DNA of 64,000 nucleotides from Candidatus Bathyarchaeota archaeon (GTDB lineage: Archaea; Thermoproteota; Bathyarchaeia; Bathyarchaeales; Bathycorpusculaceae): positions 736,001-800,000 of the forward strand of contig OY970176.1 of NCBI GenBank assembly GCA_963707955.1. The letters are read 5' to 3'. A program made the translations under genes and the position numbers. The notes below the pieces were generated by a model, which made no database searches, had not been told where the DNA came from, and worked only from the letters and a program-made list of their open reading frames with translations. Below are positions 34,339-56,887 of this stretch, piece after piece. Positions within the stretch are counted from its first letter, which is position 1. Every line of letters begins with the position of its first letter.

Positions 34339-34383
34339 AATATGCAGTTCGGTACTATAGCTATCAATCCATATCCATTTAAT
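34339..34383 (+). promoter_or_regulatory. Conserved promoter element, copy 1 (upstream of GT2 gene)
   Basis: AATATGCAGTTCG-GTACTATAGCTA-TCAA-TCCATAT-CCAT-TTAAT; TTAA starts 52 nt before ATG 34431. Confidence 0.75.
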
Positions 34384-34430
34384 TAGTACTCGAGGTCCAT
34401 TTTCTACGCTGAAGGAGAAAGGAGAGAGAG

Positions 34431-35126
34431 ATGCTTCGATCATCCGTGTCAGTAGTCATTCCCGCGTACAACGAACAGAAAACCATAGGACACGTGATCG
34501 AAGAAACCATGTCAGTAATGGACAGCCTAGGAGTCCCCTACGAGATCATCATTGTGAACGACGGGTCCACGGACAGAACAGGACAGATAGCTACGACGTA
34601 CAAAGCAACCGTCTTAACGAACGAAAGAAACCGAGGAAAAGGCCACGCCATCAGAAAGGGCTTCCAACAAGCACAGGGCGACATCGTGGTAACCTTAGAC
34701 GCTGACGGAGCGCACAGCCCCAAGGAGATACCAGACCTACTCAGTCCGCTGTCCAACGGCATGGACATCGTTGGAGGTTCAAGGTTCATGGGCAACAGCG
34801 GCGACTCAACGACCAGACTCAACCGTCTCGGCAACTTCGTCTTCAACATGGCCATCACAACGTTAACAGGAAAACGCGTAACAGACAGCCAAACAGGCTT
34901 CAGAGCCTTCAAAAAAGAAGCTCTCCAGAAGCTCAAATTAGCCTCTTTAGGCTACGAAATAGAAACCGAGATCACGGTCAAAGGGTTGAAGAACGGCTTC
35001 GCATTCGAAGAAAGACCGATAACCTGTAAGCAGAGACAATACAGCGTCTCAAAGCTGAGATTGCTCTCAGACGGAACCAAAATCCTCCAAGCAATCCTAA
35101 AAGCCAACATTGCAAAGATCGACTAG
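34431..35126 (+). CDS. GT2 glycosyltransferase (dolichol-phosphate sugar synthase-like)
   Basis: VVIPAYNE, NDGSTD, N.GKG, DADG, GSRF and DSQTGFRAF. Confidence 0.93.
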   Translation: MLRSSVSVVIPAYNEQKTIGHVIEETMSVMDSLGVPYEIIIVNDGSTDRTGQIATTYKATVLTNERNRGKGHAIRKGFQQAQGDIVVTLDADGAHSPKEIPDLLSPLSNGMDIVGGSRFMGNSGDSTTRLNRLGNFVFNMAITTLTGKRVTDSQTGFRAFKKEALQKLKLASLGYEIETEITVKGLKNGFAFEERPITCKQRQYSVSKLRLLSDGTKILQAILKANIAKID

Positions 35127-35394
35127 TGTTCGCCCAGACCCCGTACGTTTTGTTAAACCGCATTTGAATCATATGTTTGACCGGCGGGAGGGGCTGTCAG
35201 ATCACTCGCACAACGAAAAGCGCGGTACCGCCACACTCAACCCGCAGATCACATTTGGCTCCAAATAGAGGGGCCTACGCCATTGCACGCACACGCGCAC
35301 TGAAAGCGCGGGCGAGAACACCCTTCTCTCATCACCACATGTGCTTAAGTGAGCACGCTTCCGCTATAAGCAAGTTTAGGGGGTGAAGCTGTTT

Positions 35395-35733
35395 ATGCCT
35401 GATATCAGCAACTTCAGGGTGAAAGAAGGCAAATTCAAGGAATTTCAAGAATGGATTAAGGCAAACGAGAAAACAATGGCCGAACACGCACAAAAAGCAG
35501 GATGAAAATATCTGGGCACATTCCTCTACGTCCTAGGGAGCGGAGGCCCAGCTCACGGCTGCATAATGTGGGAGATTTCCAAGTATGCCGACATGGACAC
35601 TATCCGCAGCCTCTTTGATGACCCAGTCTGGGAAAAGATAGGCAAAGAGCTAACAGTCCTTCTAACGTATGACCCACTGCCCGAACAGATACTGCGGCCA
35701 ATTGGAGAAGCAAAAATCTACAAGTTCGAGTAA
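35395..35733 (+). pseudogene. 112-codon gene interrupted by one in-frame TGA (35503-35505)
   Basis: GGGGTGA RBS; FRVKEGKFKEFQEW...AG*KYLGTF...WEISKYADMD...; frame otherwise open; absent from the ORF track. Confidence 0.75.
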
Positions 35734-36219
35734 GTCCCTCGATTCCAAATGCAGGCGAAATTGGTTGCTGTTGTCCTAAGAAAGACTGCGTCAAAGAAGC
35801 GCAAAAGCTCATTGATGGCAAGCAACAAAACCTAACCAGAGCCCAACAGCATTCCATCTTCTCCGTTTTTCAGCGTGAGCGTTGACTTACCTCTTATAGT
35901 CGACTAGTTAATAGCGGACAGATGAAACGTGTTAACCTCGAGTTCTGCCCTATTTTATAGAACTCCAAAAAGGGAATTGCGTAGGAATTCGCCACTTGGG
36001 GTTGGGCTGAAGTCCCAGCGACCCCAACTCAATGGACTTTTAGCATTGGTCCAAGACACTTCTAATTCCTCTTTTGTAAGAGCTTGACGTCTTCAAGTCA
36101 CAAATGTCACGTGTGTGTGCGTAGTTTATTTTCTAAAAAATTCCATGCGATTTATATCATTGAATGTGTCTTAGAAAGGAATAACAAGAACTGAAGACAC
36201 TGCGCCAAGCAAGACTGAG

Positions 36220-36966
36220 ATGTACGGAATGCAGCTCAAACCCATGTTCACCAGCGTGGCGGATACATACGACTTGGCCAACAGAATTTTGACTCTCGGA
36301 TTCGATGAACGTTGGCGCGAAGCTTGCGCCAGAGAATCTGGTTCTGGGCGGTTTGTTGTTGACCTTTGCTGTGGAACAGGCGCTCTTTCTCTCAGGCTTT
36401 TGCCGAATCTTGGCTCGGAATCATATCTGATGGGGCTTGACTTCAACAAACAGATGCTGGACAGAGCAGCCAAGAAGAAATCTAAGTACCGACAGAAGAG
36501 ACAGCACAGGAATGTTCAAGATGCCAGCAACGGGACGGGCGTAGTTGATCTTGTATTCATGGTTACGGATGCTGCCCATCTTCCCTTGAAGGATGAGTGC
36601 ATTGACGGCATTAGTATCTCGTTCTCTTTCCGCAACCTCATATACAAGAATCCGAAAGCCTTAACGTACCTGAGAGAAGCGATCAGAACCCTGAAGAACA
36701 ATGGAAGGTTTGTGTGTGTCGAAACCAGCCAACCGAACAGCAACCTCGTCAGAGCCTTCTTCCGTTTCTACTGTTTAAGAATCGTGCCTCTCGTCGGCGG
36801 ACTCATATCCGGCCGAAAAGCCGCCTACAAGTATCTCGGAAAGTCTGCGGCAAACTTTCCGTTTCCGCAAGAAATTGTGGCGATGTTGAAAAAGGCAGGT
36901 TTTAGAAAAGCCACGTTCAAACCTCTTTACCTTGGAATAATCGCATTGTACGTCGCCGCAAAATAG
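36220..36966 (+). CDS. menG: UbiE/MenG demethylmenaquinone methyltransferase
   Basis: MF.SVA.TYDLANRILTLG.D.RWR, DLCCGTG, SFSFRN and AYKYL..S...FP. Confidence 0.88.
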   Translation: MYGMQLKPMFTSVADTYDLANRILTLGFDERWREACARESGSGRFVVDLCCGTGALSLRLLPNLGSESYLMGLDFNKQMLDRAAKKKSKYRQKRQHRNVQDASNGTGVVDLVFMVTDAAHLPLKDECIDGISISFSFRNLIYKNPKALTYLREAIRTLKNNGRFVCVETSQPNSNLVRAFFRFYCLRIVPLVGGLISGRKAAYKYLGKSAANFPFPQEIVAMLKKAGFRKATFKPLYLGIIALYVAAK

Positions 36967-37297
36967 ACCAAGCTGAGCATCTACCATGGCGCGATCCAGA
37001 TACGGATAAGAATGTTGGAGCATGCGCCATAGAAAAAAGAGAGGTTTTGTGGGTGACATCTCCATTTGTCCCACGTTCAAATCCCAGTTACCCGTGCCCT
37101 CATAGGCTATAGTGTGAGTTCGCGTATAGATGCGAGCGCGCGCAAGTCGATTTTCAGGGCTTGCAGATTTCGTTCCTGGTGAGACTTGAACCCTTTTGGT
37201 TATCTGCCTACCGAATGTGGTTTTTTTACCGGAAAAGTTGGGTTGGGTTCCATTCAGATGTTTTCAGCGTTCTCTTGTTGAGTTCAAGTCGAAGCTT

Positions 37298-37612
37298 CTA
37301 CAGGACTTCAAGTTGCCCTACAGTGTGATGCCCTACCTCGTAACCCTCTTTTTCGCAGAATTCCAGAATTCTCGCAACAGCTCTCAAATCAATTGCTTTT
37401 ATCCTCTCTTCTTCAGGTCCCACGATTTCGATGATTATCCCGACGCCTGCAACTCCGCAGCATGTGTGTACGTTTTTGTAGACTCTTATGTCATAGTCCT
37501 TTGGAACTCCTATTTCCTTTACAGATTTTTTTATTTCCCTCACTAAGAAGTCGATCTGGTATGGGTGGTTCGCATTGACGAAATAGATTTCCCTGCAGCT
37601 TACTTTGGACAT
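37298..37612 (-). CDS. Hypothetical protein with HTCCG motif
   Basis: Abuts the upstream Lrp-domain gene with no gap. Confidence 0.75.
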   Translation of the reverse strand: MSKVSCREIYFVNANHPYQIDFLVREIKKSVKEIGVPKDYDIRVYKNVHTCCGVAGVGIIIEIVGPEEERIKAIDLRAVARILEFCEKEGYEVGHHTVGQLEVL

Positions 37613-37849
37613 TCATCTCCCCTTGAAAGTGATCAAAGTAATTGTCTCCTTTATCCCTTCAATAGTGCGCAGTTTGGCGAAGACGAACTCGTCTAGGTCT
37701 TCAATCGTGGCAAAAGAAACTTCAACGTGTAAATCATAGAGTCCATACGTGGGAACCGCACTGCAAATCCCAAGCAACTTCTTCACTTCTTTGAGTACTC
37801 TTTCATCCTTTCCGGCTTCGACTTTTGCCAACACGTATGCGGTAACCAA
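37613..37849 (-). CDS. Stand-alone Lrp/AsnC ligand-binding (RAM) domain
   Basis: AYVL.KV..GK, TYG.YDL and LR.I.GI.ET.TLI. Confidence 0.88.
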   Translation of the reverse strand: MVTAYVLAKVEAGKDERVLKEVKKLLGICSAVPTYGLYDLHVEVSFATIEDLDEFVFAKLRTIEGIKETITLITFKGR

Positions 37850-37913
37850 CTCTTACTCCCTTCCCACAACTACCTATGCTCACGTAGGGCTAAGATGGCG
37901 CGCTATGGTTCTA

Positions 37914-38492
37914 CTAACCGAGATGTGTTGGTGTCGTAGTACTTGCAAAGTAAAACCAAGCGCCTGCAAAAAGGAATGCAAAGATTGCAAAGACATACCT
38001 CGCCCACTTGTTCTGAATGTGCACTGCTGGAACCGAAAGTATCAGCGCGGTTGCGGGTGCCAAGTAGAGCAAAGTGCTTTTGGTGGCGTCACTCGTGAGG
38101 CTGTATTTGAATATTGAATAGGCGTCGGAGATCAGGTATAGGCCCAAGACAAAGGCGAAGTAGGAACATGCTTGTAGTCCTCTCCTGAGGAACAACGCCG
38201 CAGCGACCGACAGCAACACTAGACCCCCGAGTGAACTAACGCCTCCGAACAGAATGTTATATCCACCGCTGTAGGGATGGATAAACTGTATGGTTATGCC
38301 AGTGAGGAAGAGGTAGAACCCGGTGGCTCCCAAAGCAACCCCCAATCCAGACGCGATATTCTTCTGTTCTTCTTCAATGGAGTCTGAAGACGCCTTGTAA
38401 TGAAGTCTGAGCGCTGCGATCCCAAGCAGTACTCCGCTTGCAACGATGCTCCACATCATAGCATCCAGATAATCGTAACTCGGTGCGGTCAA
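37914..38492 (-). CDS. DUF981-like membrane protein
   Basis: About six TM helices; P..GGYNILFG motif. Confidence 0.7.
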   Translation of the reverse strand: MTAPSYDYLDAMMWSIVASGVLLGIAALRLHYKASSDSIEEEQKNIASGLGVALGATGFYLFLTGITIQFIHPYSGGYNILFGGVSSLGGLVLLSVAAALFLRRGLQACSYFAFVLGLYLISDAYSIFKYSLTSDATKSTLLYLAPATALILSVPAVHIQNKWARYVFAIFAFLFAGAWFYFASTTTPTHLG

Positions 38493-38572
38493 AATTCATC
38501 TCTCCACATTATTTCTTGCCTTTTCTATCATGTATATCTCATATATATAATTTAGCCAACGCGTTACTCAAG

Positions 38573-40506: not shown

Positions 40507-40646
40507 CTGTTAGTCTTTTTCCCCGTTGTTCTGAAACAGAGGGAGATGCGGATACATATATCCTTTTTTCTTAGAAGTTATTGGATTGATAAGAATAACA
40601 AATTCCATAAATAACGCATAAATAATAGGTCAGAGAACACGTTTCG

Positions 40647-41363: not shown

Positions 41364-41511
41364 CACTTCCAACCCTTTAAGCGTCGAACATAGGCATCTG
41401 AGATAGCGAAATCGATCCCAACCCAATTTGAAGAAGTCAAATAGACTGTACGAAAGCCCGGGATGATTCCGAACCGAGCTAATGAACGCATAGTGTGTCT
41501 TCTCTACTCAC

Positions 41512-41698: not shown

Positions 41699-41846
41699 CG
41701 CCTGAAGCTACACGAGTGGATTGACAGACTCTAAGCCTCAAACCTAGGGACGTCATTCAGACACCCAATCGGCGGGCTAAGAACGGGGCATTATGTGGGC
41801 GGATGACATTCCGTTGAGAAACTCTTAGCTATAAAGAAGTCGTCGA

Positions 41847-43338: not shown

Positions 43339-45726
43339 TTAATCGCATCCGAGGTTTTCGGCGATTTTCTTCCTTTTTTCTTCGGGCAAGCGTCCTAGAG
43401 TGGATAGTCTCTGGTTTAGAGTTTCGAAAAGGTTAACTATTTTGTCATACTGGGGCAGAGTCGTTGTTGTTGAAGCTAGCCTAAGCGATTCAACCCCGTA
43501 CTTGCCTAATTCCTTCTTCAAATTGATTACGTGATCTCTGATGAGGTCTTCTCGGAAGGGACTATCATCGCCCTCTATGAAAATTACCCCGTCGGCTCCT
43601 GCCGCAAAGGCTTGCATTACGTGTCGGGTGCCTACTCGTCCTGCACTCGGCACGGTTATGATTCTGACATTCGGTGTGTAGTTCACTCTTGTTTGCCCAG
43701 CTAGGTCGGCTGAACCGTATGCGGTAGTCTTTTCAAGGAAAGCTAGAACTCTCGGCTCATCTCCCTCTCCTTGGCAAGTGGCTTGAATCTGAGCTGTCAA
43801 TTGCTCGTTCGTCAAGTTTTTGAGATCTATTGCCTCAGTGGGACACTTTGGCACACATATGCCGCAGCCATTGCAAAGGATCGAGTCAATTACGATGCCT
43901 TTGCGTTTGGCACTTATTGCCTTCGTCGGACAAGCTTGTATGCACACACCGCATGCGTCACATTTCTCGAGATTTACGTACGCTTTTTCCGGTGAAACAG
44001 CGATTTCACCTTTGCCCAAAAACGTAGCCACCTTGGATGCGCATGCCATAGATTCGATCGTGGTCTCTCTGATGTCTTTGGGTCCAACAGCACATCCGGC
44101 TAAGTATATGCCCTCCATCTTCGTGTCCACTGGTCTCAATTTATGATGTCTTTCCAGAAGGAAACCGTCTGGTCCAACGTCTATTCCGAGCTTTTTAGCC
44201 AGTTCATGGGAACCATAGTTGGGAAGCAGTGCTGGGCTAAGAACGACCATGTCGAATGTTTCCTCAATCTGCCTCCCCAGAACAGTGTCTTCAGCTCTCA
44301 CGGTCAAGTTTTCGCCGTTCGGAAAGACTTCGGCTGCCCGGCCTCGAATAAACTTGACACCAAGTTCTCTTGCATGCGAGTAAAATTCTTCATACCCTTT
44401 GCCATGCGCCCTTAGGTCCGTGTAGAATATCCAAGGCTCGGCTTCTGGGTTCGTCTTCAGAAGCAACAGAGAATGCTTAATGGCGTTCATACAGCCTATT
44501 TTACAGCAATAGTTTATCCCTTTGTCCATTCGGCTGCCGACGCAGAGTATGAAGGCGACTTTCTTCGGCATCTTCCCGTTTGAAGGTTGATGCAGACCTT
44601 GCAACATAAGACGCTCAAACTGCAGATTCGTCACAATGTCAGGGTGTAACCCGTAACTGTATGGACCGAAAACGTCGTGCCCATCAAAAACCTCTTTTGA
44701 GAGCTTCGGATCAAGCTGTTGATAGCCCGTGCACGCAATAATGGCTCCAACGTTCAACTCAATCATCTCCTCTTTTTGATCAAATGCTATGGCTCTGCCC
44801 TTGCAAAACCGTTCACAAACCCTGCAGACACCCTTGTTGAAAAAGAGACACGCATCTTTGTCTATCAAGTAAGTGTTAGGCACTGCTTGCTTGAAAGGCA
44901 CATAAATCGCCTTCTCCTGTTGCAGCCCTTCTTCGAACTTGCTCGTCTTTTTGGATGGACAAACTCTCGCGCATTCGCCGCACGATATGCACTTTTCTGC
45001 GTCAACGAATCGGGGCTCAACGCGCACTTGGACTTTGTAGTTACCAGGAGAACCTTCAATCGAGACGGGTTCCGCCATCGTGATAACGTCGATGTTTGGA
45101 TGTTGAGACACATAGACCATTTTTGGGGTCAAAATGCATTGGGAGCAGTCCAACGTTGGAAAGGTCTTGCTCAGTTGGGACATATGGCCGCCGATGCTGG
45201 GATTTCTTTCGACCAAGTGTACCTTGTATCCCTTGTCGGCTAATTCAATAGAAGTTAATATGCCAGCGATGCCACCTCCAATAACAAGAACATCGCCTGT
45301 AAGTGGAAGGCTTTTTGTTTCCAAAGGCTCCAGAAAACGAGCCCGTGCCACTAACCCGCTGATGAGAGCAATCGCCTTGTCTGTTGCCGATGCCTTCGTA
45401 TCATGAACCCAACTACATTGTTCACGAATATTTGCCATGTCCAGCAAGTAAGGATTAAGCCCGGCTGATTTGGCTGCTTCCCTAAAAGTCTCAAGATGCA
45501 TGCGTGGTGAGCATGAAGCTACGATAACTCGGTCGAGTTTGAGTTCCTTGATGTCTTTTTTTATCATGTCTTGTCCAGGTTTACTGCACATGTAATCATA
45601 ATTCTCGACGATTTTGACCCCGTCTAGTTTGGAAATAGCGTCCTTGACCTTTGTCACTGTCACGGTATCGCTTATGTTCCCCCCGCAGTGGCAAATGAAC
45701 ACTCCAATCGATGCATTCTTCGGCAT
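43339..45726 (-). CDS. hdrA: HdrA fused to a Cys-less MvhD-like domain
   Basis: CHCG, GGGIAG, FPTLDC, ferredoxin inserts and CVGSR; C-terminal AYGSADLAG and SAGRV; start placed at MPKN after a GGTG RBS. Confidence 0.92.
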   Translation of the reverse strand: MPKNASIGVFICHCGGNISDTVTVTKVKDAISKLDGVKIVENYDYMCSKPGQDMIKKDIKELKLDRVIVASCSPRMHLETFREAAKSAGLNPYLLDMANIREQCSWVHDTKASATDKAIALISGLVARARFLEPLETKSLPLTGDVLVIGGGIAGILTSIELADKGYKVHLVERNPSIGGHMSQLSKTFPTLDCSQCILTPKMVYVSQHPNIDVITMAEPVSIEGSPGNYKVQVRVEPRFVDAEKCISCGECARVCPSKKTSKFEEGLQQEKAIYVPFKQAVPNTYLIDKDACLFFNKGVCRVCERFCKGRAIAFDQKEEMIELNVGAIIACTGYQQLDPKLSKEVFDGHDVFGPYSYGLHPDIVTNLQFERLMLQGLHQPSNGKMPKKVAFILCVGSRMDKGINYCCKIGCMNAIKHSLLLLKTNPEAEPWIFYTDLRAHGKGYEEFYSHARELGVKFIRGRAAEVFPNGENLTVRAEDTVLGRQIEETFDMVVLSPALLPNYGSHELAKKLGIDVGPDGFLLERHHKLRPVDTKMEGIYLAGCAVGPKDIRETTIESMACASKVATFLGKGEIAVSPEKAYVNLEKCDACGVCIQACPTKAISAKRKGIVIDSILCNGCGICVPKCPTEAIDLKNLTNEQLTAQIQATCQGEGDEPRVLAFLEKTTAYGSADLAGQTRVNYTPNVRIITVPSAGRVGTRHVMQAFAAGADGVIFIEGDDSPFREDLIRDHVINLKKELGKYGVESLRLASTTTTLPQYDKIVNLFETLNQRLSTLGRLPEEKRKKIAENLGCD

Positions 45727-45738
45727 AAATACACCAGC

Positions 45739-45766
45739 CATGTCGATAAGAGATTCTATCGACATG
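45739..45766. promoter_or_regulatory. Perfect inverted repeat in the hdrA leader
   Basis: CATGTCGATA-N8-TATCGACATG between the TATA box (45790-45797) and the RBS. Confidence 0.65.
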
Positions 45767-47450: not shown

Positions 47451-49964
47451 CTATTCCTCGCTGCTTGAAGCCACAAGCATCGTGGACGCAATCTTGGGTG
47501 TCTCTCGCACGATTGGCTCTGCTTTTTTCTTCAACATGTTCTCCAATATTGGACGCAGTTTCTCGTTTTCTGCTTTGATCTTGTCCTTGCCTAATGCGTT
47601 CATCTGTGCGTTGACTTCTTTGACGAGTTCAGCAAACTTTACGCCTTCTGCAGCAGAAACGTACTCTACGCGAAGCCTCTCTGGACTCAGTCCAAGCTTC
47701 TCCAGCATCTTCGCCAAAGCCTCCATTCTGGCTTTCATCCTTCCGTTTCCGCTTATGTAGTGGCAATCGTAGGGTAGGTGGCATGCTCCAATCAAGACCA
47801 TTCCGACTCCCTGTCTGAAAGCTTCAAGAACGAAGTCTCGATCAACTCTTCCCGAGCACATGACGCGAACAGGTCTTATCGTTGGAGGATACTCAAACCT
47901 GCTCGTCCCCGCTAGGTCTGCGCCCGCGTAACTGCACCAGTTACACAAGAACGCCAAGATCTTTTCTTCCGGATTTGTCTCCAGGGCTGCTCCTATCTGA
48001 GCGAGTATTTGATCGTCTGTGAAGTGCATTTGTGTTATTGCGTTTGCTGGACATTCCGCAACGCATGTTCCACATCCATGGCACATGGCTGTTATTACTT
48101 GAGCTGGCTGTTTGTCATCGATTTTTATTGATTTGTGGGGGCATCTTTCCGCGCAAATGCCACATTTGGCTGTCAGGTTTCTGCACTTCAGTGGGTCCAC
48201 GACGGAAACTATGGGTTCGATCTTCCAAGTGGGCTTTGAGATTACGGTTGCTGCCCTTGACGCTGCACCACTGCCCTGCGAAACGCTGTATGGAATGTCC
48301 TTTAATCCTTGACATGCGCCTGCTAGGAATATTCCATCGGTAGGTGCATCCATCGGTTTGAGCTTAGGGTGGCTTTCCATGAAAAAGCCGTCAGCCCCAC
48401 GTGTTAAGCCTAATATTCGCGCAATTTCCTCTGTGCCTTTCTTAGGTGTGGCCGCTGATGCGAGAACAACCATCTCAGACTCAATTTCTATGGGTTGCCC
48501 CAGCATCATGTCCTCGGCGTGCAGAATCAAGTTCTTTGTCTCTGGAACCTCTACGATTCGGCTTACGCGTCCGTGAACAAAGGTTACGCCAAGTTCTCTT
48601 GCACGTTGATAGAATTCTTCATAACCTTTAGAGTTGCTCCGCATGTCCATGTAGAAAATGTAGACTTCAATGTCTTCCTTGTACTTCTCTTTAAGCTGAA
48701 TCGCATGTTTCAAAGTGTACATGCAACAGAAGTTTGAACAGTACGGATATTTCTTTACATCACGCGAACCGACGCATTGAATGAACGACACGGTGTGTGG
48801 TTTTTTTCCATCTGACGCCCTGATGACCTTCCCGCCTGTTGGACCAGCAGCCAGTATGAGCCTCTCAAACTCTAGCGACGTGATCACATTCGGGTATTTA
48901 CCATAGCCATAAAGCGGATTGTCGTACGGGAGGTACAAATCGTAGCCAGTCGCTACGATTATCGCACCTGCTTCGATCTCGATTTCTTCTGGTTTCTGCT
49001 CAAAATTTATGGCCTGCCTTGCTCCGCAAGCGTCAACGCACTTGTAGCATTCGATGCAGTAATCCCTGTTTATCGTGTAGACCAGCGGAACCGCTTGATC
49101 GAAAGGAGCGGATATTGCCTTTCTAACACCCAAGTTCATGTCCCACTCATTTGGATATTCAATGGGACAGGTTTCTTTGCACTCACCACATCCGGTGCAG
49201 TTGTGAGCGATCACGTATCGCGGGTTTTTCCGAATTTTGACTCTAAAATTACCAACGTAACCTTCTACGCTCAGCAAATCGGCATAATCTATTATTTCAA
49301 TGTTAGGATGTCTTTTTACGTCAACCATTTTGGGGCCTTCGATGCATATGCTGCAGTCAAGAGTTGGAAACGTCTTGTCCAGTTGCGCCATGTGACCCCC
49401 AATGCTTTCACTTTTCTCGAGCAAATACACTTTGAAGCCCATTTCAGCTAGGTCGAGCGAAGCATTCATTCCAGCTATGCCGCCGCCTATGACTAAGGCC
49501 TTGTGCGTTACAGGGACCTCTATCTTCTGCAGAGGCGATAGCAGTCTCACCTTCGCCACGGCCATTTTTATCAAGTCTTTGGCTTTCTCAGTTGCAGCTT
49601 CTGGAGTACTTGAGTGACACCAAGATGCGAATTCACGAATGTTTGCCATTTCAAAGAGAAACGGATTCAAGCCGGCATCTGAGACCGTCCTGCGAAATGT
49701 AGGTTCGTGCATTCGCGGTGAGCATGCTGCAACCACGACACGATTGAGCCTATGCTCCTTCACGGCCTTTTTGATCTCTTCTTGTCCGGGGTCAGCGCAT
49801 GTGTAGCGGTTGTCCTTCACATAAACAACGTCTGGTAGAGTCCCTGCAAATTGGACAAGTTCCTTTATGTTTAGAACTCCAGCTATGTTTAGACCGCAGT
49901 GGCAAACGAAAACCCCTATCTTCAGGTGTTCAAATTTCTTTTCGATGAGTTGGATACAAATCAC
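47451..49964 (-). CDS. hdrA: HdrA-MvhD fusion with intact [2Fe-2S] ligands
   Basis: CHCG, GGGIAG, FPTLDC and YCSNFCC; CNWC, MCSGR and CHLPYDCHY; true start uncertain (GTG 49964, ATC 49955 or ATG 50000). Confidence 0.93.
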   Translation of the reverse strand: MICIQLIEKKFEHLKIGVFVCHCGLNIAGVLNIKELVQFAGTLPDVVYVKDNRYTCADPGQEEIKKAVKEHRLNRVVVAACSPRMHEPTFRRTVSDAGLNPFLFEMANIREFASWCHSSTPEAATEKAKDLIKMAVAKVRLLSPLQKIEVPVTHKALVIGGGIAGMNASLDLAEMGFKVYLLEKSESIGGHMAQLDKTFPTLDCSICIEGPKMVDVKRHPNIEIIDYADLLSVEGYVGNFRVKIRKNPRYVIAHNCTGCGECKETCPIEYPNEWDMNLGVRKAISAPFDQAVPLVYTINRDYCIECYKCVDACGARQAINFEQKPEEIEIEAGAIIVATGYDLYLPYDNPLYGYGKYPNVITSLEFERLILAAGPTGGKVIRASDGKKPHTVSFIQCVGSRDVKKYPYCSNFCCMYTLKHAIQLKEKYKEDIEVYIFYMDMRSNSKGYEEFYQRARELGVTFVHGRVSRIVEVPETKNLILHAEDMMLGQPIEIESEMVVLASAATPKKGTEEIARILGLTRGADGFFMESHPKLKPMDAPTDGIFLAGACQGLKDIPYSVSQGSGAASRAATVISKPTWKIEPIVSVVDPLKCRNLTAKCGICAERCPHKSIKIDDKQPAQVITAMCHGCGTCVAECPANAITQMHFTDDQILAQIGAALETNPEEKILAFLCNWCSYAGADLAGTSRFEYPPTIRPVRVMCSGRVDRDFVLEAFRQGVGMVLIGACHLPYDCHYISGNGRMKARMEALAKMLEKLGLSPERLRVEYVSAAEGVKFAELVKEVNAQMNALGKDKIKAENEKLRPILENMLKKKAEPIVRETPKIASTMLVASSSEE

Positions 49965-49984
49965 CTGCGTTCTAGAGTGTGATG

Positions 49985-50002
49985 TTATGATAAATATCAT
50001 AA
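49985..50002. promoter_or_regulatory. Palindromic operator upstream of hdrA-mvhD
   Basis: TTATGATA-AA-TATCATAA with perfect 8-bp arms. Confidence 0.6.
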
Positions 50003-50276
50003 AAAGTATATTAACGTTTACCCTAGCTTGGCTTAATTTAATGATTCTCCCGGTTCTCAAATGCCCCATACAATTGGTCACGGCGACGCAACAAAAACGC
50101 TCAAAAGAAACGCAAAAGCGGATTAATAACGTGCCAATTAAGCTTATGGTTAATCGCGGCCGTGCCAGTTCGCACGTAGGTGCGGACACCCTTGGAGGGT
50201 CAGGCATTTGCCCGCAAGACTTTCAAGGTGTGAAGGGTTAGCCATACTTTGAAAGGCATTTGGAGAACTGAAGGCT

Positions 50277-51146
50277 ATGAGGACAGAGGATCTTAAGAAG
50301 GTTGTACTGAAGATGTATGGAAGCAGGGAGTTTTATGGCTATGAGGTTCACAAGGAGCTTGCTTCTGAAAAGGTTGATGTTGGTATCAGTCGTTTGTACA
50401 GAGTTCTCACTGAGATGCTACGGGAAGGATTGCTTGAGGGTCGATGGGAGAAGGGTCAGCTTGGGCCTCGGAGAAGAGTGTACAGGATCGGCAGGAAAGG
50501 GAAGGAGGAGCGTAAGAAGCTTCTTTTAGAGGCGATTGACACTGTTCACGGGTTTTACAGCGAGTACCTGCTCAACCTACCTGCCGAGACCAATGTTCTC
50601 AATAGCGCGGTCAAACTACTGTCCAGCAACGTGGATAGAAAAGGAGAGATCGCATTCATTTCTCCTGCGTATTCGGTGATGCACGAGAAAATATTGCACA
50701 AACTGCACAACGAAATGCCCCAAGCGAAGATATACTTCGTGAAGCCCGCCTCATTAACCGTTGACTTGAACTTTGACAACCTATGGTTTTTGAATGGGAC
50801 TTGCGATAATATTCCGCTAAAAGATGGTTACGTTGATCTCGCGATCATAGCCGAAGCTCCAAAGAAGGATTGTCTGGAGGAATCCTTGACTGAAGTGCAC
50901 AGAGTGCTAAAGCAAGATGGCACGCTGACAATAGTAATACCAACAATTCTAGTGTGCAAAAACGAAGACCCTCTGTCAATAGGCAACTTCATCGAAAAAT
51001 ATGAGCATGAAGCGTCAGAAAAGCGTGATTACGTAGAGGCTGAGACTCTTAAGGCGCTAATGCAGAAACTATTCAACAATGTCGAAGAAAAAAGAATTGT
51101 CCACATGACATATTTCTTAGCCTCTCAACCGCGTCTTCTCCATTAA
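50277..51146 (+). CDS. PadR-wHTH / class I methyltransferase-fold fusion, copy 1
   Basis: FYGYEV, SRLYRVL.EM...GLL..RW and GPRRRVYRI; IPLKDGYVDL and EVHRVLK.DG. Confidence 0.88.
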   Translation: MRTEDLKKVVLKMYGSREFYGYEVHKELASEKVDVGISRLYRVLTEMLREGLLEGRWEKGQLGPRRRVYRIGRKGKEERKKLLLEAIDTVHGFYSEYLLNLPAETNVLNSAVKLLSSNVDRKGEIAFISPAYSVMHEKILHKLHNEMPQAKIYFVKPASLTVDLNFDNLWFLNGTCDNIPLKDGYVDLAIIAEAPKKDCLEESLTEVHRVLKQDGTLTIVIPTILVCKNEDPLSIGNFIEKYEHEASEKRDYVEAETLKALMQKLFNNVEEKRIVHMTYFLASQPRLLH

Positions 51147-51200
51147 TGATCAGGAAGGCCAAGGCGACTTTTGTTACTTGCGAATCTCAAACCGGCGGAC

Positions 51201-51245
51201 TATATGCCATTCAGTACTATAGCTATTATTCAATAGTTGCTTAAG
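51201..51245 (+). promoter_or_regulatory. Conserved promoter element, copy 2 (upstream of the 47-aa ORF)
   Basis: TATATGCCATTCA-GTACTATAGCTA-TTAT-TCAATAG-TTGC-TTAAG; TTAA starts 50 nt before ATG 51291. Confidence 0.75.
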
Positions 51246-51290
51246 AGTGCGTTTTGCTTTCTTGAATACAAAACTTGGAGTTGAAAAAGA

Positions 51291-51434
51291 ATGAACAAGC
51301 GCGCGCGCAAACAGAAGCCAAAAGTGGACACAAGCGGGTTGAGAGAGAGATCTGCTGGAAGAGATGCCGAGGGGCCGTTAAAATTCTTCTTGGATTGGCT
51401 GCACAGCCAAGAGCTAAGCTCGGAACAGCTTTGA
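51291..51434 (+). CDS. Unannotated 47-aa basic protein
   Basis: MNKRARKQKPKVDTSGLRERSAGRDAEGPLKFFLDWLHSQELSSEQL; GGAGTTGA RBS; expected distance from the conserved element. Confidence 0.55.
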   Translation: MNKRARKQKPKVDTSGLRERSAGRDAEGPLKFFLDWLHSQELSSEQL

Positions 51435-51598
51435 CTATGGCCCAGCAGCCGTAACTGTGAACATTCACTATGCCGCTGTGTGTTTGGCTGCGCGGCTTTC
51501 GCCAAATCAAGCAATGACTTTACTGCCTTTGAGATTTCCTACTTGAATAAGAATCACAACTTTCCTTAAGGCAAGGCTTGATCGATCGAGAGTCTTCA

Positions 51599-52219
51599 TC
51601 ACATGACGGCCAAGTAGGCCATTACGAATATCATTATGATTTGAAATATTGTCTGACTTCCGGCATAGTAGATGTTTCTCATGCCAAGTTTCACAACCTT
51701 CTCCGTGTTCGGGTTTGCCTTTCTCAGCTCCAATAGGACGCGAACTTCATTAGGCAATATAAGGGCAAAGCCTTGGACCGACAAGATAATGACGATGATG
51801 ATGGCAGCGATTATTGGTGTGGTGTAGAAACTTATCCCCATACGATTGGCCAGGGAGATTCCAGCGGTTATGCCCACCGCGGCCAACCCTGGCATGAAGA
51901 ACAGCATCATAGGCACAAGTTTCTTTATGACCTCAACGCGGCTTTGCGGCGAGAGACCACGCATCACCCTACTCATCACAAGACCCATGAACAGGTCTAT
52001 GCCCGTCCACGTTCCAGCGATAAGCACATGAACATAATTCAACAAAAGGAGACTTCCACTCAACAATGCCGCGATCAACGCGATTATGGGGACGGCCAAA
52101 GTCAGATAGCTACTCAGCCCCACGATTGCGCTGTCTTTGCTAGCTAAAGTTGTTGTATTCGGAGGTTTTGTCACGTATCCTTCCTCGTGCTGAGCTACCG
52201 ATATCTTGTTCCATCGCAA
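51599..52219 (-). CDS. Hypothetical membrane protein (CopD/DUF2269-like four-helix bundle)
   Basis: LNYVHV..AGTWTG.DLFMG and LPNE motifs; about five TM helices; start uncertain. Confidence 0.75.
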   Translation of the reverse strand: MRWNKISVAQHEEGYVTKPPNTTTLASKDSAIVGLSSYLTLAVPIIALIAALLSGSLLLLNYVHVLIAGTWTGIDLFMGLVMSRVMRGLSPQSRVEVIKKLVPMMLFFMPGLAAVGITAGISLANRMGISFYTTPIIAAIIIVIILSVQGFALILPNEVRVLLELRKANPNTEKVVKLGMRNIYYAGSQTIFQIIMIFVMAYLAVM

Positions 52220-52275
52220 CCCATATTTGGAATTTTCGATACCGACATATGGAGGAAAGTCTCATCCCTTGCTCG

Positions 52276-52821
52276 CTACCCCAACCAACCAAGAGATTGT
52301 GGGTGTGGTAGTTTTCGTTCTTTCCAGTAATATGTGTGATTGCAGTAGCCGTCTCCTTGCATCACAGTCTTTGTCCTTTTCAGTCTTATTTTTGGGTTGT
52401 AGGCTCTTGCCGTCGCAAAGTCACGGCGGCAGCATATGACGTAGCCAAGCTTTGTTGCATTCATTTCCTTGAAGGTCTTAGCCCATAAACACTCCGTTAT
52501 GTGGGCGCTCAATTTCACGGGCGTTTCTTCGGGATAGGTCACTGTCAACGCATGCGTCCAAAAGGGAGATTCGTTTTCCTCCTTTACGAAGCGTTTAAAG
52601 TCTTCAAACTTCTTAATTGGCTTCTTGGAGAGCTGGTTCTTGACAGATTCTACCCCAGACTTTTCAGCCCACTTTTTGATTATTCCGAAAGCTCTTTTTC
52701 TGCCCAGAGCATGCTCGAAAACCTCAGCCAATCCCACCGTGTCCCTGTATCGGTCCTGAAAAAACTGCTCATAAGTCAGCACCATTTTTCCTTGAAACTT
52801 GTGCGGAGTCTTCTTATTCAT
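52276..52821 (-). CDS. L-2-amino-thiazoline-4-carboxylic acid hydrolase family protein
   Basis: ITECLWA..F, LGY..CC..DF and L.RTKT.MQG..YCNH.Y. Confidence 0.88.
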   Translation of the reverse strand: MNKKTPHKFQGKMVLTYEQFFQDRYRDTVGLAEVFEHALGRKRAFGIIKKWAEKSGVESVKNQLSKKPIKKFEDFKRFVKEENESPFWTHALTVTYPEETPVKLSAHITECLWAKTFKEMNATKLGYVICCRRDFATARAYNPKIRLKRTKTVMQGDGYCNHTYYWKERKLPHPQSLGWLG

Positions 52822-52991
52822 GCCCCCTCAACAACCACATACTGGTTCTGATCTAGGGGATAAAACTTTACATCAACCGCGCGCGCCAAATTCTATCCTC
52901 TCTCTATCGTTCATGTTCTTGAACGCGCGATCACGATCATTTTATACGGCCACCGATGATACAGTATTAGCCAGAAAACGGGTGATATGGA

Positions 52992-53490
52992 TTGACGGAT
53001 CTTTGGCAGCTGGTGGGTCTGTCTATCTTGAATTTTCTGCATCTTTTGGCGACGGTTGTATGGGTTGGTGGAATGGCAACTAACATTCTGGTTACACTAC
53101 CATCTACTAGGGAAGTACTGGAGCCAGCAGTTTTTGGCAGGTTTATCGGAGCGATAATGAAAAGGTTTCGCCTTATCGCATACGTAAGTATCATAACTCT
53201 CCTTGTTTGCGGCGTTCTTTTGACACTGGTGAATGAGAATTTTGTAGGTGGGCCATTTGATAACGCTTGGAGTCAACTTATCTTAGCCAAACACTTATTT
53301 GTGGCCGCTTTGGTTCTGCTCACTGTCTACTCCTTCGAGGTGTTAGCTCCTAAAGTAGCCAAGTTAGCTGCGAAAGGACCTTCGCCCGAGACTGCTGAAG
53401 ACTCAAAAGCTTCAATTAAGACTGGCTTCCACTGGATTCGTGCTAGGCCTTGTCATTCTAATGCTGATAGCAATAGTGCTTTCTCTTTGA
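52992..53490 (+). CDS. CopD/DUF4149-like membrane protein with a +1 frameshift near 53391
   Basis: FLHLLATVVWVGG and L.AKH; the last TM helix LLKTQKLQLRLASTGFVLGLVILMLIAIVLSL is in the shifted frame. Confidence 0.78.
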
Positions 53491-53849
53491 GCGCGCGCAG
53501 ATATTTGCTCAAAACCAGGAACGCGAATAATCATAAGTATGAAGAGCTAGTCGTCTTGCAGTTTGCCCGCGCTTGAACCTTTCCTGTGATTGGAACCAAC
53601 ATTCCTTGTTCAACTAGAAAGGCATGATTTGCATCTGGAAAAACTCATTTGTTATGAAGCCATATGTTTCACACTCAAGGACTATGAAGACTTTCTTGCT
53701 TCCTGAGTTTGGGCAGCTAAACTTGTTCAGTCTTCTCACCCATTTTCATTATCGTTGGTTTTCGCGGGCGTTAGTTTGCGATGGTTAATATGAGAGCAAA
53801 GCTTAATCTAGCGCCTTGTTCTAAGGCGATTAGGTTGGAGGTGGATTCT

Positions 53850-54335
53850 TTGAGTCTTTTTGGGCATAAGGCAGTACCTAAGGTTCAGTTGACTTATGAT
53901 GTGATGATGAAATGCAACTGCGGAATGTGTCCGGTCCAAGCCAATAGTGCGTGTGCCAAACCTAAGATAATGGCTAGAGACGAGATGATGAAGAACCCGA
54001 GCTCTGAAATAAAGAAGATCATGACCCCTGGAATGATGCAGAACCTGGAAATGATAAAGAACATGAGCCCTGAAACGATGAGGAGCATGTCAAGAGAACA
54101 GATGAAGAAAATGAGCGATGAAATGATGAAGAACACGCCAAAAGAACAGATTTCGGCGATGATGCTTAAAGTGGAAGATATGCCTGGGCCTTACTGTGCT
54201 AACGGCGTTGCAGTCTGTAAAGACCTAGATTTCAGCAAGATGTGCGTTTGCAGCGGATGCCAAGTTTTCAAGGACTTTAGTCTCATGAAAGGTAAACCAA
54301 TGAGCTACTATTGTAAAGACGGCAAGGCTACGTAG
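53850..54335 (+). CDS. DUF2769-like Cys-rich protein with a Met-rich insert
   Basis: CNCGMCP...C, YC..G...C and CVCSGC.V...YYC..G; GGAGGTG RBS before TTG 53850. Confidence 0.82.
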   Translation: MSLFGHKAVPKVQLTYDVMMKCNCGMCPVQANSACAKPKIMARDEMMKNPSSEIKKIMTPGMMQNLEMIKNMSPETMRSMSREQMKKMSDEMMKNTPKEQISAMMLKVEDMPGPYCANGVAVCKDLDFSKMCVCSGCQVFKDFSLMKGKPMSYYCKDGKAT

Positions 54336-54393
54336 TTTTCTTAGCGCTCTTCACTTTGATTGCATATACTGCATTCCTGATTTTTATGTTTCG

Positions 54394-55317
54394 TCAACGA
54401 GCGCGCGCGCCATTGCTGGAGAAATGTGGTTCCGATGCCGAGAAGATGGTCATGTTAACAATCTCCGTTTCTTCAACCTTTCGGAAAAAATTCTCCAGCA
54501 ACGCCCGAAAGGCTTTCTTATTCGCACGTTTACCCAGTTCCAGTGCTTCATATTCATGTTTCTCTATAAAGTCGCTTATCGTCAACGGGTCCTCGTATTC
54601 GCGGACGAAAACTGTGGGCATCAAGATCACGAGCCTTCCACTTTCTTTTAGTACTCTGCCCCACTCTCTCAGTGCTGTCTGCACAAGATCGTTTTCGGGA
54701 ATGTTGGCGACCACTATCAGGTCGGCATAACCATCTTTTAATGGAACTTTCACGTAGTTGCCATCCAAGAAAAACAAGTTGTCCAGACGCCGGTACATCT
54801 CCACTAATCTTGGCTTCACCAGATAAATCTTTCCCCTACGTACTTTACTAATAAGACAGCATATCATTCTCTCGTGCATTGCGGAGTATTCAGGGACAAT
54901 GTACACGATGATGTGTTGGTCCATTAATTCCTCTCCAAGTAGCCTGCAGACGTTATCAAAAACGTTGATCTTTGAGGGAAGACCCAACAAGTATTCACCA
55001 TAGAAGGCGTCGATGGTCTCGATAGCGTCTAAGAAAATCCTGTTAAGCTCCTCCCTCCCCTTCCCGCTAAGCCTGTAAACCCTCTTCTCGGGTCCAAACT
55101 GGCTCTTCTGCCAACGACTCTGAAGCAAGTGCTCTCGCAGCATCTCGTTTAGAATCCTGTACAAACGGCTGATCTCAACTGTAACGCCTTCAGACGCAAG
55201 TTTCTTGTGAATTTCGTACCCGTAGAATTCTTTACCTCTAAACATCTTCAGGATATTCCTTTTAAGATCCTGAGCTCTCACGGCTGAAGTCTCCATACTA
55301 GAATTCGGGCTCTCCAT
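54394..55317 (-). CDS. PadR-wHTH / class I methyltransferase-fold fusion, copy 2
   Basis: EFYGYEIHKKL, SRLYRILNEM and GPEKRVYRL; VPLKDGYADL and EWGRVLK.SG. Confidence 0.88.
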   Translation of the reverse strand: MESPNSSMETSAVRAQDLKRNILKMFRGKEFYGYEIHKKLASEGVTVEISRLYRILNEMLREHLLQSRWQKSQFGPEKRVYRLSGKGREELNRIFLDAIETIDAFYGEYLLGLPSKINVFDNVCRLLGEELMDQHIIVYIVPEYSAMHERMICCLISKVRRGKIYLVKPRLVEMYRRLDNLFFLDGNYVKVPLKDGYADLIVVANIPENDLVQTALREWGRVLKESGRLVILMPTVFVREYEDPLTISDFIEKHEYEALELGKRANKKAFRALLENFFRKVEETEIVNMTIFSASEPHFSSNGARAR

Positions 55318-55360
55318 CCGACGTCACCTAGATTCTACATTTTCAATGTTAAAGCCGCCG

Positions 55361-55405
55361 TTTAAGGACCTATGGAATCGCAACTATAGTACTAATTAGC
55401 ACATA
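55361..55405 (-). promoter_or_regulatory. Conserved promoter element, copy 3 (upstream of regulator copy 2)
   Basis: Minus strand TATGTGCTAATTA-GTACTATAGTTG-CGAT-TCCATAG-GTCC-TTAAA; TTAA starts 48 nt before ATG 55317. Confidence 0.75.
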
Positions 55406-55499
55406 GGCTAAAATTACAGCGCGCGCTTGAAAAAATGGGTGAACTATTTGCGGGCCGTCCGCTTAGAAGCCTTAACGTTAGAACCTGAAGCACCTTTTT

Positions 55500-55940
55500 G
55501 CTTGGCGGCTCCTGCTAGTATACAAGTAAACATAATTCACGCTCTTCCACGATTTTGTAAACACTTGCATCTAATAGATCAGTGCGGGACGTTTGACATG
55601 CACACGCGCTATTACTAGACCGTGATTTGCACATGCTACTGAGAACATTGGTCTTGGAAGAGTATAGTGAGAAAGTACTCACTGTAGAACCTGCGGGCTG
55701 TCACAATCGCGTCCAAAAGAATCGTTTCACGTCCCTTCTTTCCTTTCTCGCCGACCCTGCACATCCTTTTTCGAGGCTCTTCTCCAACCAGCCTCAAGCA
55801 GGCAACATCTCAATAAGAACTTTAAGAACTCTACAAGTGACCGATGTCAACCTTAATCCTTTCTGAAGCAAGCTCCTTCTGAGCCGCATAACCACAAACT
55901 CTGCTTCCAAACATCCTCGCGCTAACCTCAGTGGTTCGAT
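55500..55940 (-). pseudogene. Decayed fourth copy of the PadR-methyltransferase-fold gene
   Basis: Minus strand 55915-55861 aligns by eye with 50312-50369, and 55691-55635 with 50551-50606; many indels and a large internal deletion. Confidence 0.85.
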
Positions 55941-55947
55941 TTCGATT

Positions 55948-56826
55948 TCATAGTGATAAACGGGGAGAGCGAGGTTCTGATGCTAAGAAGAGCACCATGT
56001 GAACAATCTTTGTTTTTTCAATCTTTTGGAAAAAATTTTTCAACGATGACTGAAGATATTTCCCATCGGCGTGCTCATTTATCTTCATAGTGTCATGTTC
56101 ATACTTCTCAATGAAGTTGCCGATTGTCAAAGGGTCTTTGTACTCCTCTACGAAAATCGCCGGAATCAAGATTGCCAATTTCCCATCTGCCCGTAACACC
56201 CTGCACCACTCTGTTAACGCTGTCTCCAGAAAATCCTTTTTGGGGATGTCTATAACCACCAAGAGATCGACAAAAGAGTCCTTTAATGGGATGTTTTCGT
56301 AGGTGCCGTCCATTAAGGTCAGGTTGTCAGGACACGGGTCAACGAGCACCGATCTCGGCTTCACGAAATAGATCTTCCCTTGAGAATCTCTTCTTTGAAG
56401 ATTGCAGATCATCCTCGCGTGCATCACGGAATAACTTGGGGTAACGAAGGCGATGTTGCCCCGTCCCCTGAGTTGACGGGCAAAGTGCCGCCGGACACTT
56501 TCGAAAACGCTGCGCTCAGCTGGAAGATTCAGCAGATACTCTTCGTAAGAGGCATGGATAGTCCTGATGGCGTCTTGAAGAATTCCGTCGAGCTTCTTCC
56601 TTCCCTTTTCACCAAGCCTGTACACTCTCTTCTTTGGTCCGAGTTGGCTTTTCTCCCAACGACTCTCAAGCAGTTTCTCTTTAAGCATCTCGTTCAGGAT
56701 CCTATAGAGGCGGCTGATTTCAACCTTGATGTCTTGAGACGCGAGCTTTTTGTGAACCTCATACCCGTAGAACTCTCTGCCTCTAAACATCTTCAAGATA
56801 TTCTTCTTAAGATCGTCCGTTTTCAT
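55948..56826 (-). CDS. PadR-wHTH / class I methyltransferase-fold fusion, copy 3
   Basis: Start placed at MKTDDLKK by homology to copy 1; same motif set. Confidence 0.88.
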   Translation of the reverse strand: MKTDDLKKNILKMFRGREFYGYEVHKKLASQDIKVEISRLYRILNEMLKEKLLESRWEKSQLGPKKRVYRLGEKGRKKLDGILQDAIRTIHASYEEYLLNLPAERSVFESVRRHFARQLRGRGNIAFVTPSYSVMHARMICNLQRRDSQGKIYFVKPRSVLVDPCPDNLTLMDGTYENIPLKDSFVDLLVVIDIPKKDFLETALTEWCRVLRADGKLAILIPAIFVEEYKDPLTIGNFIEKYEHDTMKINEHADGKYLQSSLKNFFQKIEKTKIVHMVLFLASEPRSPRLSL

Positions 56827-56842
56827 AGACTTTAAGCCTCGG

Positions 56843-56887
56843 TATATGTATTCGGGTACTATAGCTAAAAGTCCATATATGCTTAAT
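56843..56887 (+). promoter_or_regulatory. Conserved promoter element, copy 4 (divergent region between regulator copy 3 and the surface protein)
   Basis: TATATGTATTCGG-GTACTATAGCTA-AAAG-TCCATAT-ATGC-TTAAT; TTAA starts 45 nt before ATG 56928. Confidence 0.75.

Follow-up and report, generated by a model that had tools for sequence, protein, structure and literature searches.

The DNA analysed here, hereafter the window, is a stretch of 64,000 nucleotides from a Candidatus Bathyarchaeota archaeon (assembly GCA_963707955.1, contig OY970176.1), in which a short promoter element recurs four times, mostly beside genes for PadR-type regulators fused to a methyltransferase-like domain. Comparison across archaeal genomes indicates that the element is very probably the operator of these PadR-fusion regulators, and that the two together form a real, specific and evolutionarily conserved regulator-operator module. 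The pattern WATRTGY-N6-GTACTATAGYTR-N4-TCMATAK-N4-TTAA was found with constant internal spacing at 34339(+), 51201(+), 55405(-) and 56843(+), a recurrence far beyond chance that confirms what an initial annotation of the window had proposed. Also as described there, three of the copies flank the PadR-fusion genes, the fourth lies 17 kb away, and the terminal TTAA precedes an ATG by 52, 50, 48 and 45 nt; counted from the first base of the core, the same four ATG codons lie 79, 77, 75 and 72 nt downstream.

The specificity of the element was assessed by word counts and by matrix scans of the entire source genome, a single contig of 2,346,764 bases (G+C 47.9%) of which the window is positions 736001-800000. 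The 9-mer GTACTATAG, whose G is +1 in the element numbering used throughout, is present in four copies in the window, a number that none of 100 shuffles reached and that compares with an expectation of 0.09, and in six copies in the whole genome. A matrix of 52 nt built on the window's four copies scored these at 60.7-69.2 bits and revealed a fifth site at 30.2 bits, the next best position scoring 9.4. An independent matrix, constructed from 27 instances that all came from foreign genomes and none from the source genome, recovered the same five sites on a scan of both strands (28.0-48.5 bits), with the next best at 8.0, so that only five positions in 2.35 Mb exceeded 10 bits. The genome-wide scan suggested in the initial annotation thus returned five sites only, and no further regulon member scored above 9.4 bits with the genome's own matrix or above 8.0 with the foreign one. 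The fifth copy lies at genome position 1162733(-), 370 kb past the end of the window, and has a slightly degenerate core, GTATTATAC; neither this copy nor a decayed fourth PadR copy at 55663-55917 had figured in the earlier account.

Mean pairwise identity among the copies was 0.65 within a 48-nt block, compared with 0.26 and 0.29 in the 60-nt flanks on either side. Because likeness ends at the edges of the block, the element is discrete, and a long repeat or mobile element was rejected. Runs of GCGCGCG were noticed near sites 1, 3 and 5. Alternating GC runs of at least 7 bases (in the window, for example, 34319-34326, 51299-51308 and 55419-55426) number 641 genome-wide, 493 of them outside open reading frames (ORFs) of at least 120 amino acids, which make up 81% of the genome; the runs are therefore a genome-wide intergenic feature and were rejected as a part of the element. 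Their intergenic enrichment is strong.

Consensus and symmetry were analysed on 34 instances of the element. The consensus, aCTATaTG-N7-GTACTATAG-N8-cctTAg-N4-cTTAa, comprises three boxes, R1 (aCTATrTG, -15 to -8), R2 (GTACTATAG, +1 to +9) and R3 (YCWTAK, +18 to +23), followed by a TATA-like TTA(A/T) at +28 to +31. No insertion or deletion separates R2 from the TTA in any of the 34 instances, and the TTA at +28 to +30 is among the best-conserved columns. In the symmetry analysis the CTATAG palindrome itself ranked first as a dyad centre, position -3 came second, and a further centre lay at +13/14. Together R1 and R2 make up an inverted repeat, imperfect and centred near -3 (TATGYA-N6-TACTAT), and the outer part of R2 forms a second dyad with R3 centred near +13/14. 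The loose dyad CTATAG-N8-CMATAK of the initial annotation is therefore present, but it is one of two in the element. About 34 bp separate the main dyad from the centre of the TATA-like sequence downstream of it.

The position of the element relative to gene starts is also constrained. An ORF of at least 60 codons begins at +71 to +95 in 19 of the 34 instances, in keeping with the fixed distance to starts on which the earlier interpretation depended. In a profile of 329 Shine-Dalgarno-led ORFs of the source genome, TATA-like hexamers peak at -54 to -43 from the ATG; the TTAA of the element, at -52 to -45, sits at this usual distance and was for that reason counted as a TATA-like core-promoter element, as had been suggested. 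Ordinary promoters of the genome carry aAa 3-5 nt before the TATA box. This A-rich stretch, resembling a transcription factor B (TFB) recognition element (BRE), is absent at the five sites, which have CCAT, TTGC, GTCC, ATGC and GTGG in its place. Where a regulator gene lies divergently, R1 and R2 are 15-38 nt from its ATG and adjoin a G-rich, Shine-Dalgarno-like run. Since this run is located between R1 and the regulator ATG, the regulator transcript must start within or beyond R1. R1 and R2 would accordingly lie over the start region of the regulator gene, or between its TATA box and its start.

To relate the element to the regulator, both were searched for in a close comparison set of 41 genomes, comprising the source genome and 40 relatives. 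Five of the 41, all of one genus, encode a full-length homologue of the fusion protein (E <= 2e-57), and the other genomes matched the PadR domain only. The pattern GTACTATAG-N8-YNWTAK occurred in exactly those five genomes, and the reversed pattern, used as the control, gave 2 hits in the 41. The four relatives among them contain six matches, none more than about 1 kb away from a regulator gene. A wider, even sample of 300 further genomes of the phylum contained no regulator at E <= 1e-20; there the pattern gave 13 hits in 11 genomes and the reversed control about 41 hits (counted from a table). Co-occurrence with the regulator family, named in the initial annotation as a way of checking the regulon, was thus seen in five of five regulator-bearing genomes, with the element at background level in 336 regulator-negative ones (36 + 300). 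Five further regulator-bearing genomes gave nine matches, of which seven adjoin the regulator gene; the remaining two, both in the genome designated G041, precede another family 2 glycosyltransferase (GT2) gene and an orthologue of the CMD-family gene that follows the fifth copy.

The association was then examined at 26 archaeal loci, obtained by scanning one genome per species with the family alignment. A copy scoring above 0 lies within about 115 nt upstream of the regulator start at 23 of these loci, and at 17 the core is 25-37 nt from the regulator ATG, divergent from it and pointing away to another gene. The exceptions are two loci with degenerate copies only, as judged by eye, and one with a copy 41 nt past the regulator's stop codon. 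The locus titles name Bathyarchaeia or Bathyarchaeota, Heimdall-, Hermod-, Thor- and Promethearchaeota, and Thermoplasmatota. ORF clustering of 21 non-redundant loci revealed the regulator as the only family present in 21 of 21; the next real family is present in five. Co-occurrence and adjacency thus hold over 10 regulator-bearing genomes and the 26 loci, which argues strongly, on comparative grounds, for the element as the cis-site of the family itself. All boxes would seem to be under selection, even where there is no divergent gene, because they are intact at sites lacking one.

An alternative is that another factor reads the element, such as an alternative pair of TATA-binding protein (TBP) and TFB, or that it is simply a conserved bidirectional core promoter, with the TATA box of the regulator supplied by R2 or R3 and that of the target by TTAA. 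The initial annotation had itself named an alternative TFB or another factor as a possibility. CTATAG, ATATG and TTAA are all TATA-like, and R3 and TTAA, with 8 bp between them, could be two TATA boxes set back to back. However, the PadR fusion is the sole gene that travels with the element (21/21 loci), the element falls to background where the regulator is missing, R1 and R2 persist without a divergent gene, and general factors need no invariant 9-mer with six copies in a genome. Since the co-occurrence with the regulator is exclusive, we regard this alternative as improbable.

It could also be supposed that the copies are inert leftovers of recent duplications of the regulator locus, or ends of small mobile elements, given that the locus has been duplicated, as its three paralogues and the decayed fourth copy attest, and that copy 2 precedes a 47-codon ORF only. 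Against this, the flanks have diverged to random identity around a conserved block, the distance to start codons is fixed, and sites 1 and 5 lie far from the cluster. G041 keeps both the GT2 and the CMD site: its copy ahead of the GT2 gene is 88% identical to copy 1 over a 43-nt stretch, and nothing beyond this 43-nt element aligned between the two GT2 loci in DNA or translated comparisons, while its site orthologous to the fifth copy has a perfect core. Because the element is moreover conserved across metagenome-assembled genomes (MAGs) with different phylum labels, we consider inert duplicates hardly credible.

The regulator protein was characterized by profile, alignment and structure comparison. 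Paralogues A, B and C, which are mutually 48-55% identical, scored 45.2, 49.9 and 49.6 bits against PF03551 (cutoff 27), and PadR chains of the PDB matched residues 6-81 with E down to 1.3e-12. Alignment, structure work and the tree used 20 sequences from the 26 loci and the window paralogues; loci L070 and L062 were left out, the former because it is frameshifted. The regulator gene of L070 is split over two overlapping frames (3001-3853). In the 20 sequences Y22 and Y41 are invariant and R67 nearly so; by HMMER alignment and inspection by eye they correspond to Tyr20, Tyr42 and Lys67, given as the DNA-binding signature of Bacillus subtilis PadR (PMC5728393). The recognition helix, SRLYRvLnEM, is, like box R2, nearly invariant across the MAGs. 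Because this helix is almost identical in the three paralogues, all of them probably read the same operator. In the clade of genomes G004, G007 and G008 (loci L041, L042, L043 and L070), residue 39, which lies in the helix and is elsewhere nearly invariant Arg, is Tyr, and R1 reads GCTATTMG as opposed to aCTATRTG, with R2 unaltered; this is possibly a case of protein-DNA covariation, confined to one clade.

The remainder of the protein resembles a methyltransferase. Methyltransf_11 matched at 19.3-22.0 bits (paralogue B, 22.0; cutoff 21.2), covering the second half of the domain only. An AlphaFold2 model of paralogue C (mean predicted local distance difference test score, pLDDT, 82.6; predicted TM-score, pTM, 0.70) placed a winged helix, a long helix and a Rossmann-type domain (residues ~120-290) in this order, and Foldseek matches to the S-adenosylmethionine (SAM) methyltransferases 1vlm (target TM 0.53) and 3l8d (target TM 0.59) identified the last as a Rossmann-like methyltransferase fold. 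In class I enzymes SAM is bound by a glycine-rich motif I (GxGxG), which follows strand 1, and by an acidic residue that follows strand 2. Both are absent in 20 of 20 aligned members, which have I-x-[FY]-[IV]-x-P-x-Y-S-x-M-H at the first of these places and K-P at the second, as assigned by eye against the strands of the model. Catalysis by the domain is thus doubtful, and the lack of the SAM loop and acidic residue suggests that it is probably a sensor or dimerisation module, not an enzyme. The protein has neither the C-terminal two-helix dimerisation domain of PadR subfamily 1 nor the single-domain layout with a terminal helix of subfamily 2; as modelled, the fusion would represent a third PadR architecture. 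The family is small: of 1.84 billion cluster representatives, 73 match it at E <= 1e-30. The tree, built on 20 members, mixes Asgard-labelled sequences with those of Bathyarchaeia and does not group the source genome's three paralogues together; paralogue A, 53% identical to C, sides with the orthologue of genome G009.

We propose that the element functions as an operator and core-promoter module for the PadR-fusion regulators. We infer that it would be occupied by one or two dimers of these proteins, on the R1-R2 dyad and probably on the R2-R3 dyad. At a divergent regulator gene the bound protein would block the gene's own promoter or transcription start, resulting in autorepression, a reading based on the location of R1 and R2 15-38 nt from the regulator ATG and upstream of its Shine-Dalgarno-like run. 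On the co-directional side the same protein would stand just upstream of the TATA-like element, in fixed phase with it, and could recruit TBP/TFB and so activate the target gene. Five promoters would be driven in this way, those of an AglJ-like GT2 gene, the 47-codon ORF, paralogue B, a surface-protein gene (sharing its site with paralogue C) and a CMD/AhpD gene. Supposing that the element is the operator, we slightly favour activation of the targets over their repression, because the boxes end just upstream of the TATA-like sequence, the spacing is invariant and the A-rich BRE-like stretch is missing; PadR-family activators such as AphA and RosR make activation plausible. The proposal in its entirety, sign of regulation included, has somewhat less than an even chance of being right. 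It departs from the initial annotation in two respects. Paralogue A has no upstream copy through which to activate itself, and the position of the boxes at paralogue C predicts self-repression, not self-activation; nor would an activating PadR protein be as unusual as was supposed, AphA having been deposited as an activator and RosR activating as well.

It is also possible, however, that the same operator serves a classical PadR repressor, with dimers on R1-R2 and R2-R3 covering the BRE/TATA region and the regulator start until a ligand of the methyltransferase-like domain derepresses the five promoters. Repression is the norm of the family, most characterised PadR proteins being ligand-released repressors (PMC5728393), and a single mechanism would then cover both directions of the divergent promoter. 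R3 (+18 to +23) abuts the TATA-like element at +28, and together with the second dyad at +13/14 it reaches the place of the BRE, where a bound protein might just as well keep TFB out. Strong TATA boxes, TTTATAGG and TTATATAA, occur in several relatives and should need no activator. Core-promoter strength at the five sites is not clearly low either: the scores lie at percentiles 76, 15, 48, 25 and 13 of ordinary promoters in a comparison biased against them, and this comparison did not separate activation from repression. On the other hand, the best-conserved boxes, R1 and R2, sit 36-70 nt upstream of the predicted target start. Archaeal repressors usually act nearer to the start than this. Furthermore, the TATA-like element belongs to neither dyad, and R1 and R2 are intact without a divergent gene (sites 1, 3 and 5, and G041), which is unexpected if R3 alone mattered. 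We regard a ligand-released repressor as a serious possibility, nearly as likely as the favoured combination of autorepression and target activation.

Besides the points just given for repression, several others weigh against the favoured account or the breadth of its evidence. Paralogue A has no site in its upstream region, with either the genome's own or the foreign matrix, so the notion that all the regulators are autoregulated fails. The resemblance of the element to the B. subtilis operator described below is partial, with agreement at 5 of 8 specified consensus positions and TG.A at -9 to -6 in 15 of 34 instances. Because kin genomes are not independent, there are fewer independent events than the co-occurrence counts suggest. 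The phylum names of the 26 loci are unchecked labels of MAG records, and the backbone of the tree is weakly supported and poorly resolved.

The features of the window that bear on the module are listed in Table 1. Target 1 scored 170 bits against the NCBIfam AglJ model, under its cutoff of 325, and its matches to dolichyl-phosphate hexose transferase models were likewise under cutoff. Outside the window, the fifth copy precedes a gene, with its ATG at +77, for a CMD/AhpD-family protein that has a CPYC motif. Target 4 is 57% identical to the G009 gene that lies divergent from the regulator and has no Pfam family above cutoff; the spacing of 29 nt between the core and the ATG of paralogue C resembles that at most loci elsewhere. 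Copy 3 is kept ahead of the paralogue B orthologue in L045, L046 and L047, and the placement of copy 2, directly 3' of a regulator gene and co-directional with it, is seen again in L047, L062 and L064. The first 9-10 bases of the 47-codon ORF are like the start of the 356-aa target gene, and for that reason the ORF may be a relic. Copy 2 also points at the 3' end of the convergent membrane-protein gene at 51599-52219(-), into which a transcript from copy 2 could run as antisense. This membrane protein recurs beside the regulator in congeners, at 5 of the 21 non-redundant loci. The decayed PadR copy, which lies between paralogue C and copy 3, has three in-frame stops (one TGA, one TAG and one TAA).

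Table 1. Coordinates of the element copies, regulator genes and associated genes in the window.
Feature	Position	Strand	Remarks
Motif copy 1 (R1, R2, R3, TTAA)	34339..34382	+	41.8 bits with foreign matrix
Predicted target 1, GT2 glycosyltransferase, AglJ-like / dolichyl-phosphate hexose transferase-like	34431..35126	+	PF00535 E 4.6e-36
PadR-fusion paralogue A	50277..51146	+	Pfam PadR E 9.7e-12; weak Methyltransf_11 match
Motif copy 2	51201..51244	+	48.5 bits with foreign matrix; 55 nt past paralogue A stop
47-codon ORF	51291..51434	+	Downstream of copy 2; coding status doubtful
Membrane protein, family unassigned	51599..52219	-	No Pfam match; 85% identical to G009 L044:6110-6679
PadR-fusion paralogue B, putative target-type client of copy 3	54394..55317	-	PadR E 3.2e-13
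Motif copy 3	55362..55405	-	48.4 bits with foreign matrix
Decayed fourth PadR copy, N-terminal part	55663..55917	-	41% identity to residues 12-101
PadR-fusion paralogue C, ancestral divergent arrangement with copy 4	55948..56826	-	PadR E 3.9e-13
Motif copy 4, shared by divergent paralogue C and surface protein	56843..56886	+	43.8 bits with foreign matrix
Predicted target 4, 356-aa surface protein	56928..57998	+	N-terminal hydrophobic signal, C-terminal membrane anchor, 9 N-X-S/T sequons

At other loci the served gene usually encodes a protein with a signal peptide or membrane anchor, from families unrelated among loci. The targets in relatives include homologues of the 356-residue protein, a beta-helix/NosD-like protein, a Tat-signal multicopper oxidase (L054), an EB_dh-domain protein, a DUF7901 protein, dockerin/InlB-repeat proteins, a Kelch propeller with a C-terminal anchor, and small Cys-rich secreted proteins. 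In two loci of the G004/G007/G008 clade, L042 (G007; 7549-7770) and L070 (2974), the beta-helix target behind an intact motif has shrunk to a 43-codon ORF. The cell-envelope regulon of the initial annotation stands in its broad lines and retains its envelope flavour, in the anchored nine-sequon protein, the AglJ-like GT2 and the mostly secreted proteins of relatives, but its 'small protein' is the doubtful 47-codon ORF, and the fifth, CMD/AhpD member had been missed.

The surrounding genes were also surveyed. Two large HdrA-like flavoprotein/ferredoxin proteins, each with a terminal MvhD/FlpD domain, are encoded at 43339-45765(-) and 47451-50207(-), with genes for a proline dehydrogenase and a DUF2096 protein between them. 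The interval 52276-54335, between paralogues A and B, contains genes for an ATC-hydrolase-like protein, a CopD/DUF2269-like membrane protein and a Cys-rich DUF2769-like protein; together with the multicopper oxidase target of L054, these may hint at a metal/redox theme.

To our knowledge, gene regulation in Bathyarchaeia and Asgard archaea is almost unknown, few of these organisms being cultured. Full-text literature searches, covering main texts, returned no description of the motif or of a PadR fusion to a methyltransferase-like domain without a SAM loop; of 38 papers containing the 9-mer, the 10 listed first had no relevant title. In the present case a regulator-operator pair can be stated from sequence alone, as a protein family, a 48-bp three-box site, a fixed position relative to TATA and start, and a predicted five-promoter regulon in one complete genome, and recombinant protein with synthetic DNA would suffice to test it, the organism itself not having to be grown. 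The near-invariance of the recognition helix and the 9-mer across phylum labels is unusual for a local regulator whose targets differ between lineages, and for this reason hints at horizontal spread of a self-contained cassette. By a bolder extension, regulator, invariant operator and a swappable extracellular-protein gene would form a portable cassette exchanged among Bathyarchaeia, Asgard archaea and Thermoplasmatota, in which the pseudo-methyltransferase would detect phenolic or methoxylated aromatics that derive from lignin or peat and turn on secreted proteins particular to each lineage, with autorepression and activation as in LysR-type transcriptional regulators. The sensing idea draws on the domain architecture, which is most like that of plant caffeic-acid/monolignol O-methyltransferases, and on targets such as the Tat-signal multicopper oxidase, the EB_dh-type protein, the surface glycoproteins with the glycosyltransferase, and the CMD-family enzyme. 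We think this extension rather unlikely; were it true, these lineages of uncultured archaea would have their first defined transcription factor-operator pair, and with it a ready-made orthogonal switch.

Among known systems the closest operator layout is that of padC in B. subtilis, where PadR binds two 6-bp inverted repeats with a 6-bp spacer, CATGTA-N6-TACATG (PMC5728393). The R1-R2 part of the element has the 6-6-6 layout and a GTA-N6-TAC core in common with this operator, in what is otherwise a partial match, and the regulators share the PadR winged helix with its Tyr, Tyr and basic signature as well as a gene that adjoins the target. The element differs in being longer, in having three boxes, fixed spacing to an archaeal TATA-like element and other bases in the outer half-sites; the protein carries a 200-residue methyltransferase-like Rossmann domain in place of the two-helix dimerisation domain described for B. 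subtilis PadR (PMC5728393). A second relative, Vibrio AphA, was deposited in the PDB as 'gene activator AphA' (1yg2). Its PadR-family membership shows that activation lies within the range of the family, although AphA is bacterial and has another C-terminal domain and another promoter logic.

Foldseek best matches to the model were plant O-methyltransferases (COMT and IOMT, E 8e-11 to 1e-8), in which an N-terminal winged helix likewise precedes a class-I methyltransferase fold. With TM-scores of 0.41-0.48 and root-mean-square deviations of 12-16 A, the likeness is architectural and not detailed; the GxGxG SAM loop is absent from the archaeal protein, and the winged helix of COMT dimerises and does not bind DNA. 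The proposed wiring has a parallel in bacterial LysR-type pairs, in which regulator and target are divergent and share an operator that mediates autorepression and target control. Protein family and transcription machinery are unrelated to those considered here, and this is an analogy only. Links between PadR proteins and the cell envelope have been reported in bacteria, where HAAS-PadR pairs are tied to envelope stress (PMC11237479). The nearest archaeal counterpart is RosR, a haloarchaeal PadR-family protein that both activates and represses, and that in Haloferax mediterranei binds upstream of and activates the gene for a PGF-domain cell-surface protein (bioRxiv 10.1101/2024.11.20.624553). 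As in the present family, the targets of RosR vary strongly from one related species to the next. RosR consists of a single domain, however, and its site, clearly different from the element, is a direct repeat, TGACA-N6-TGACA; the regulators described here, in contrast, combine the winged helix with a fused sensor-like domain and an operator that is almost invariant across MAG phylum labels.

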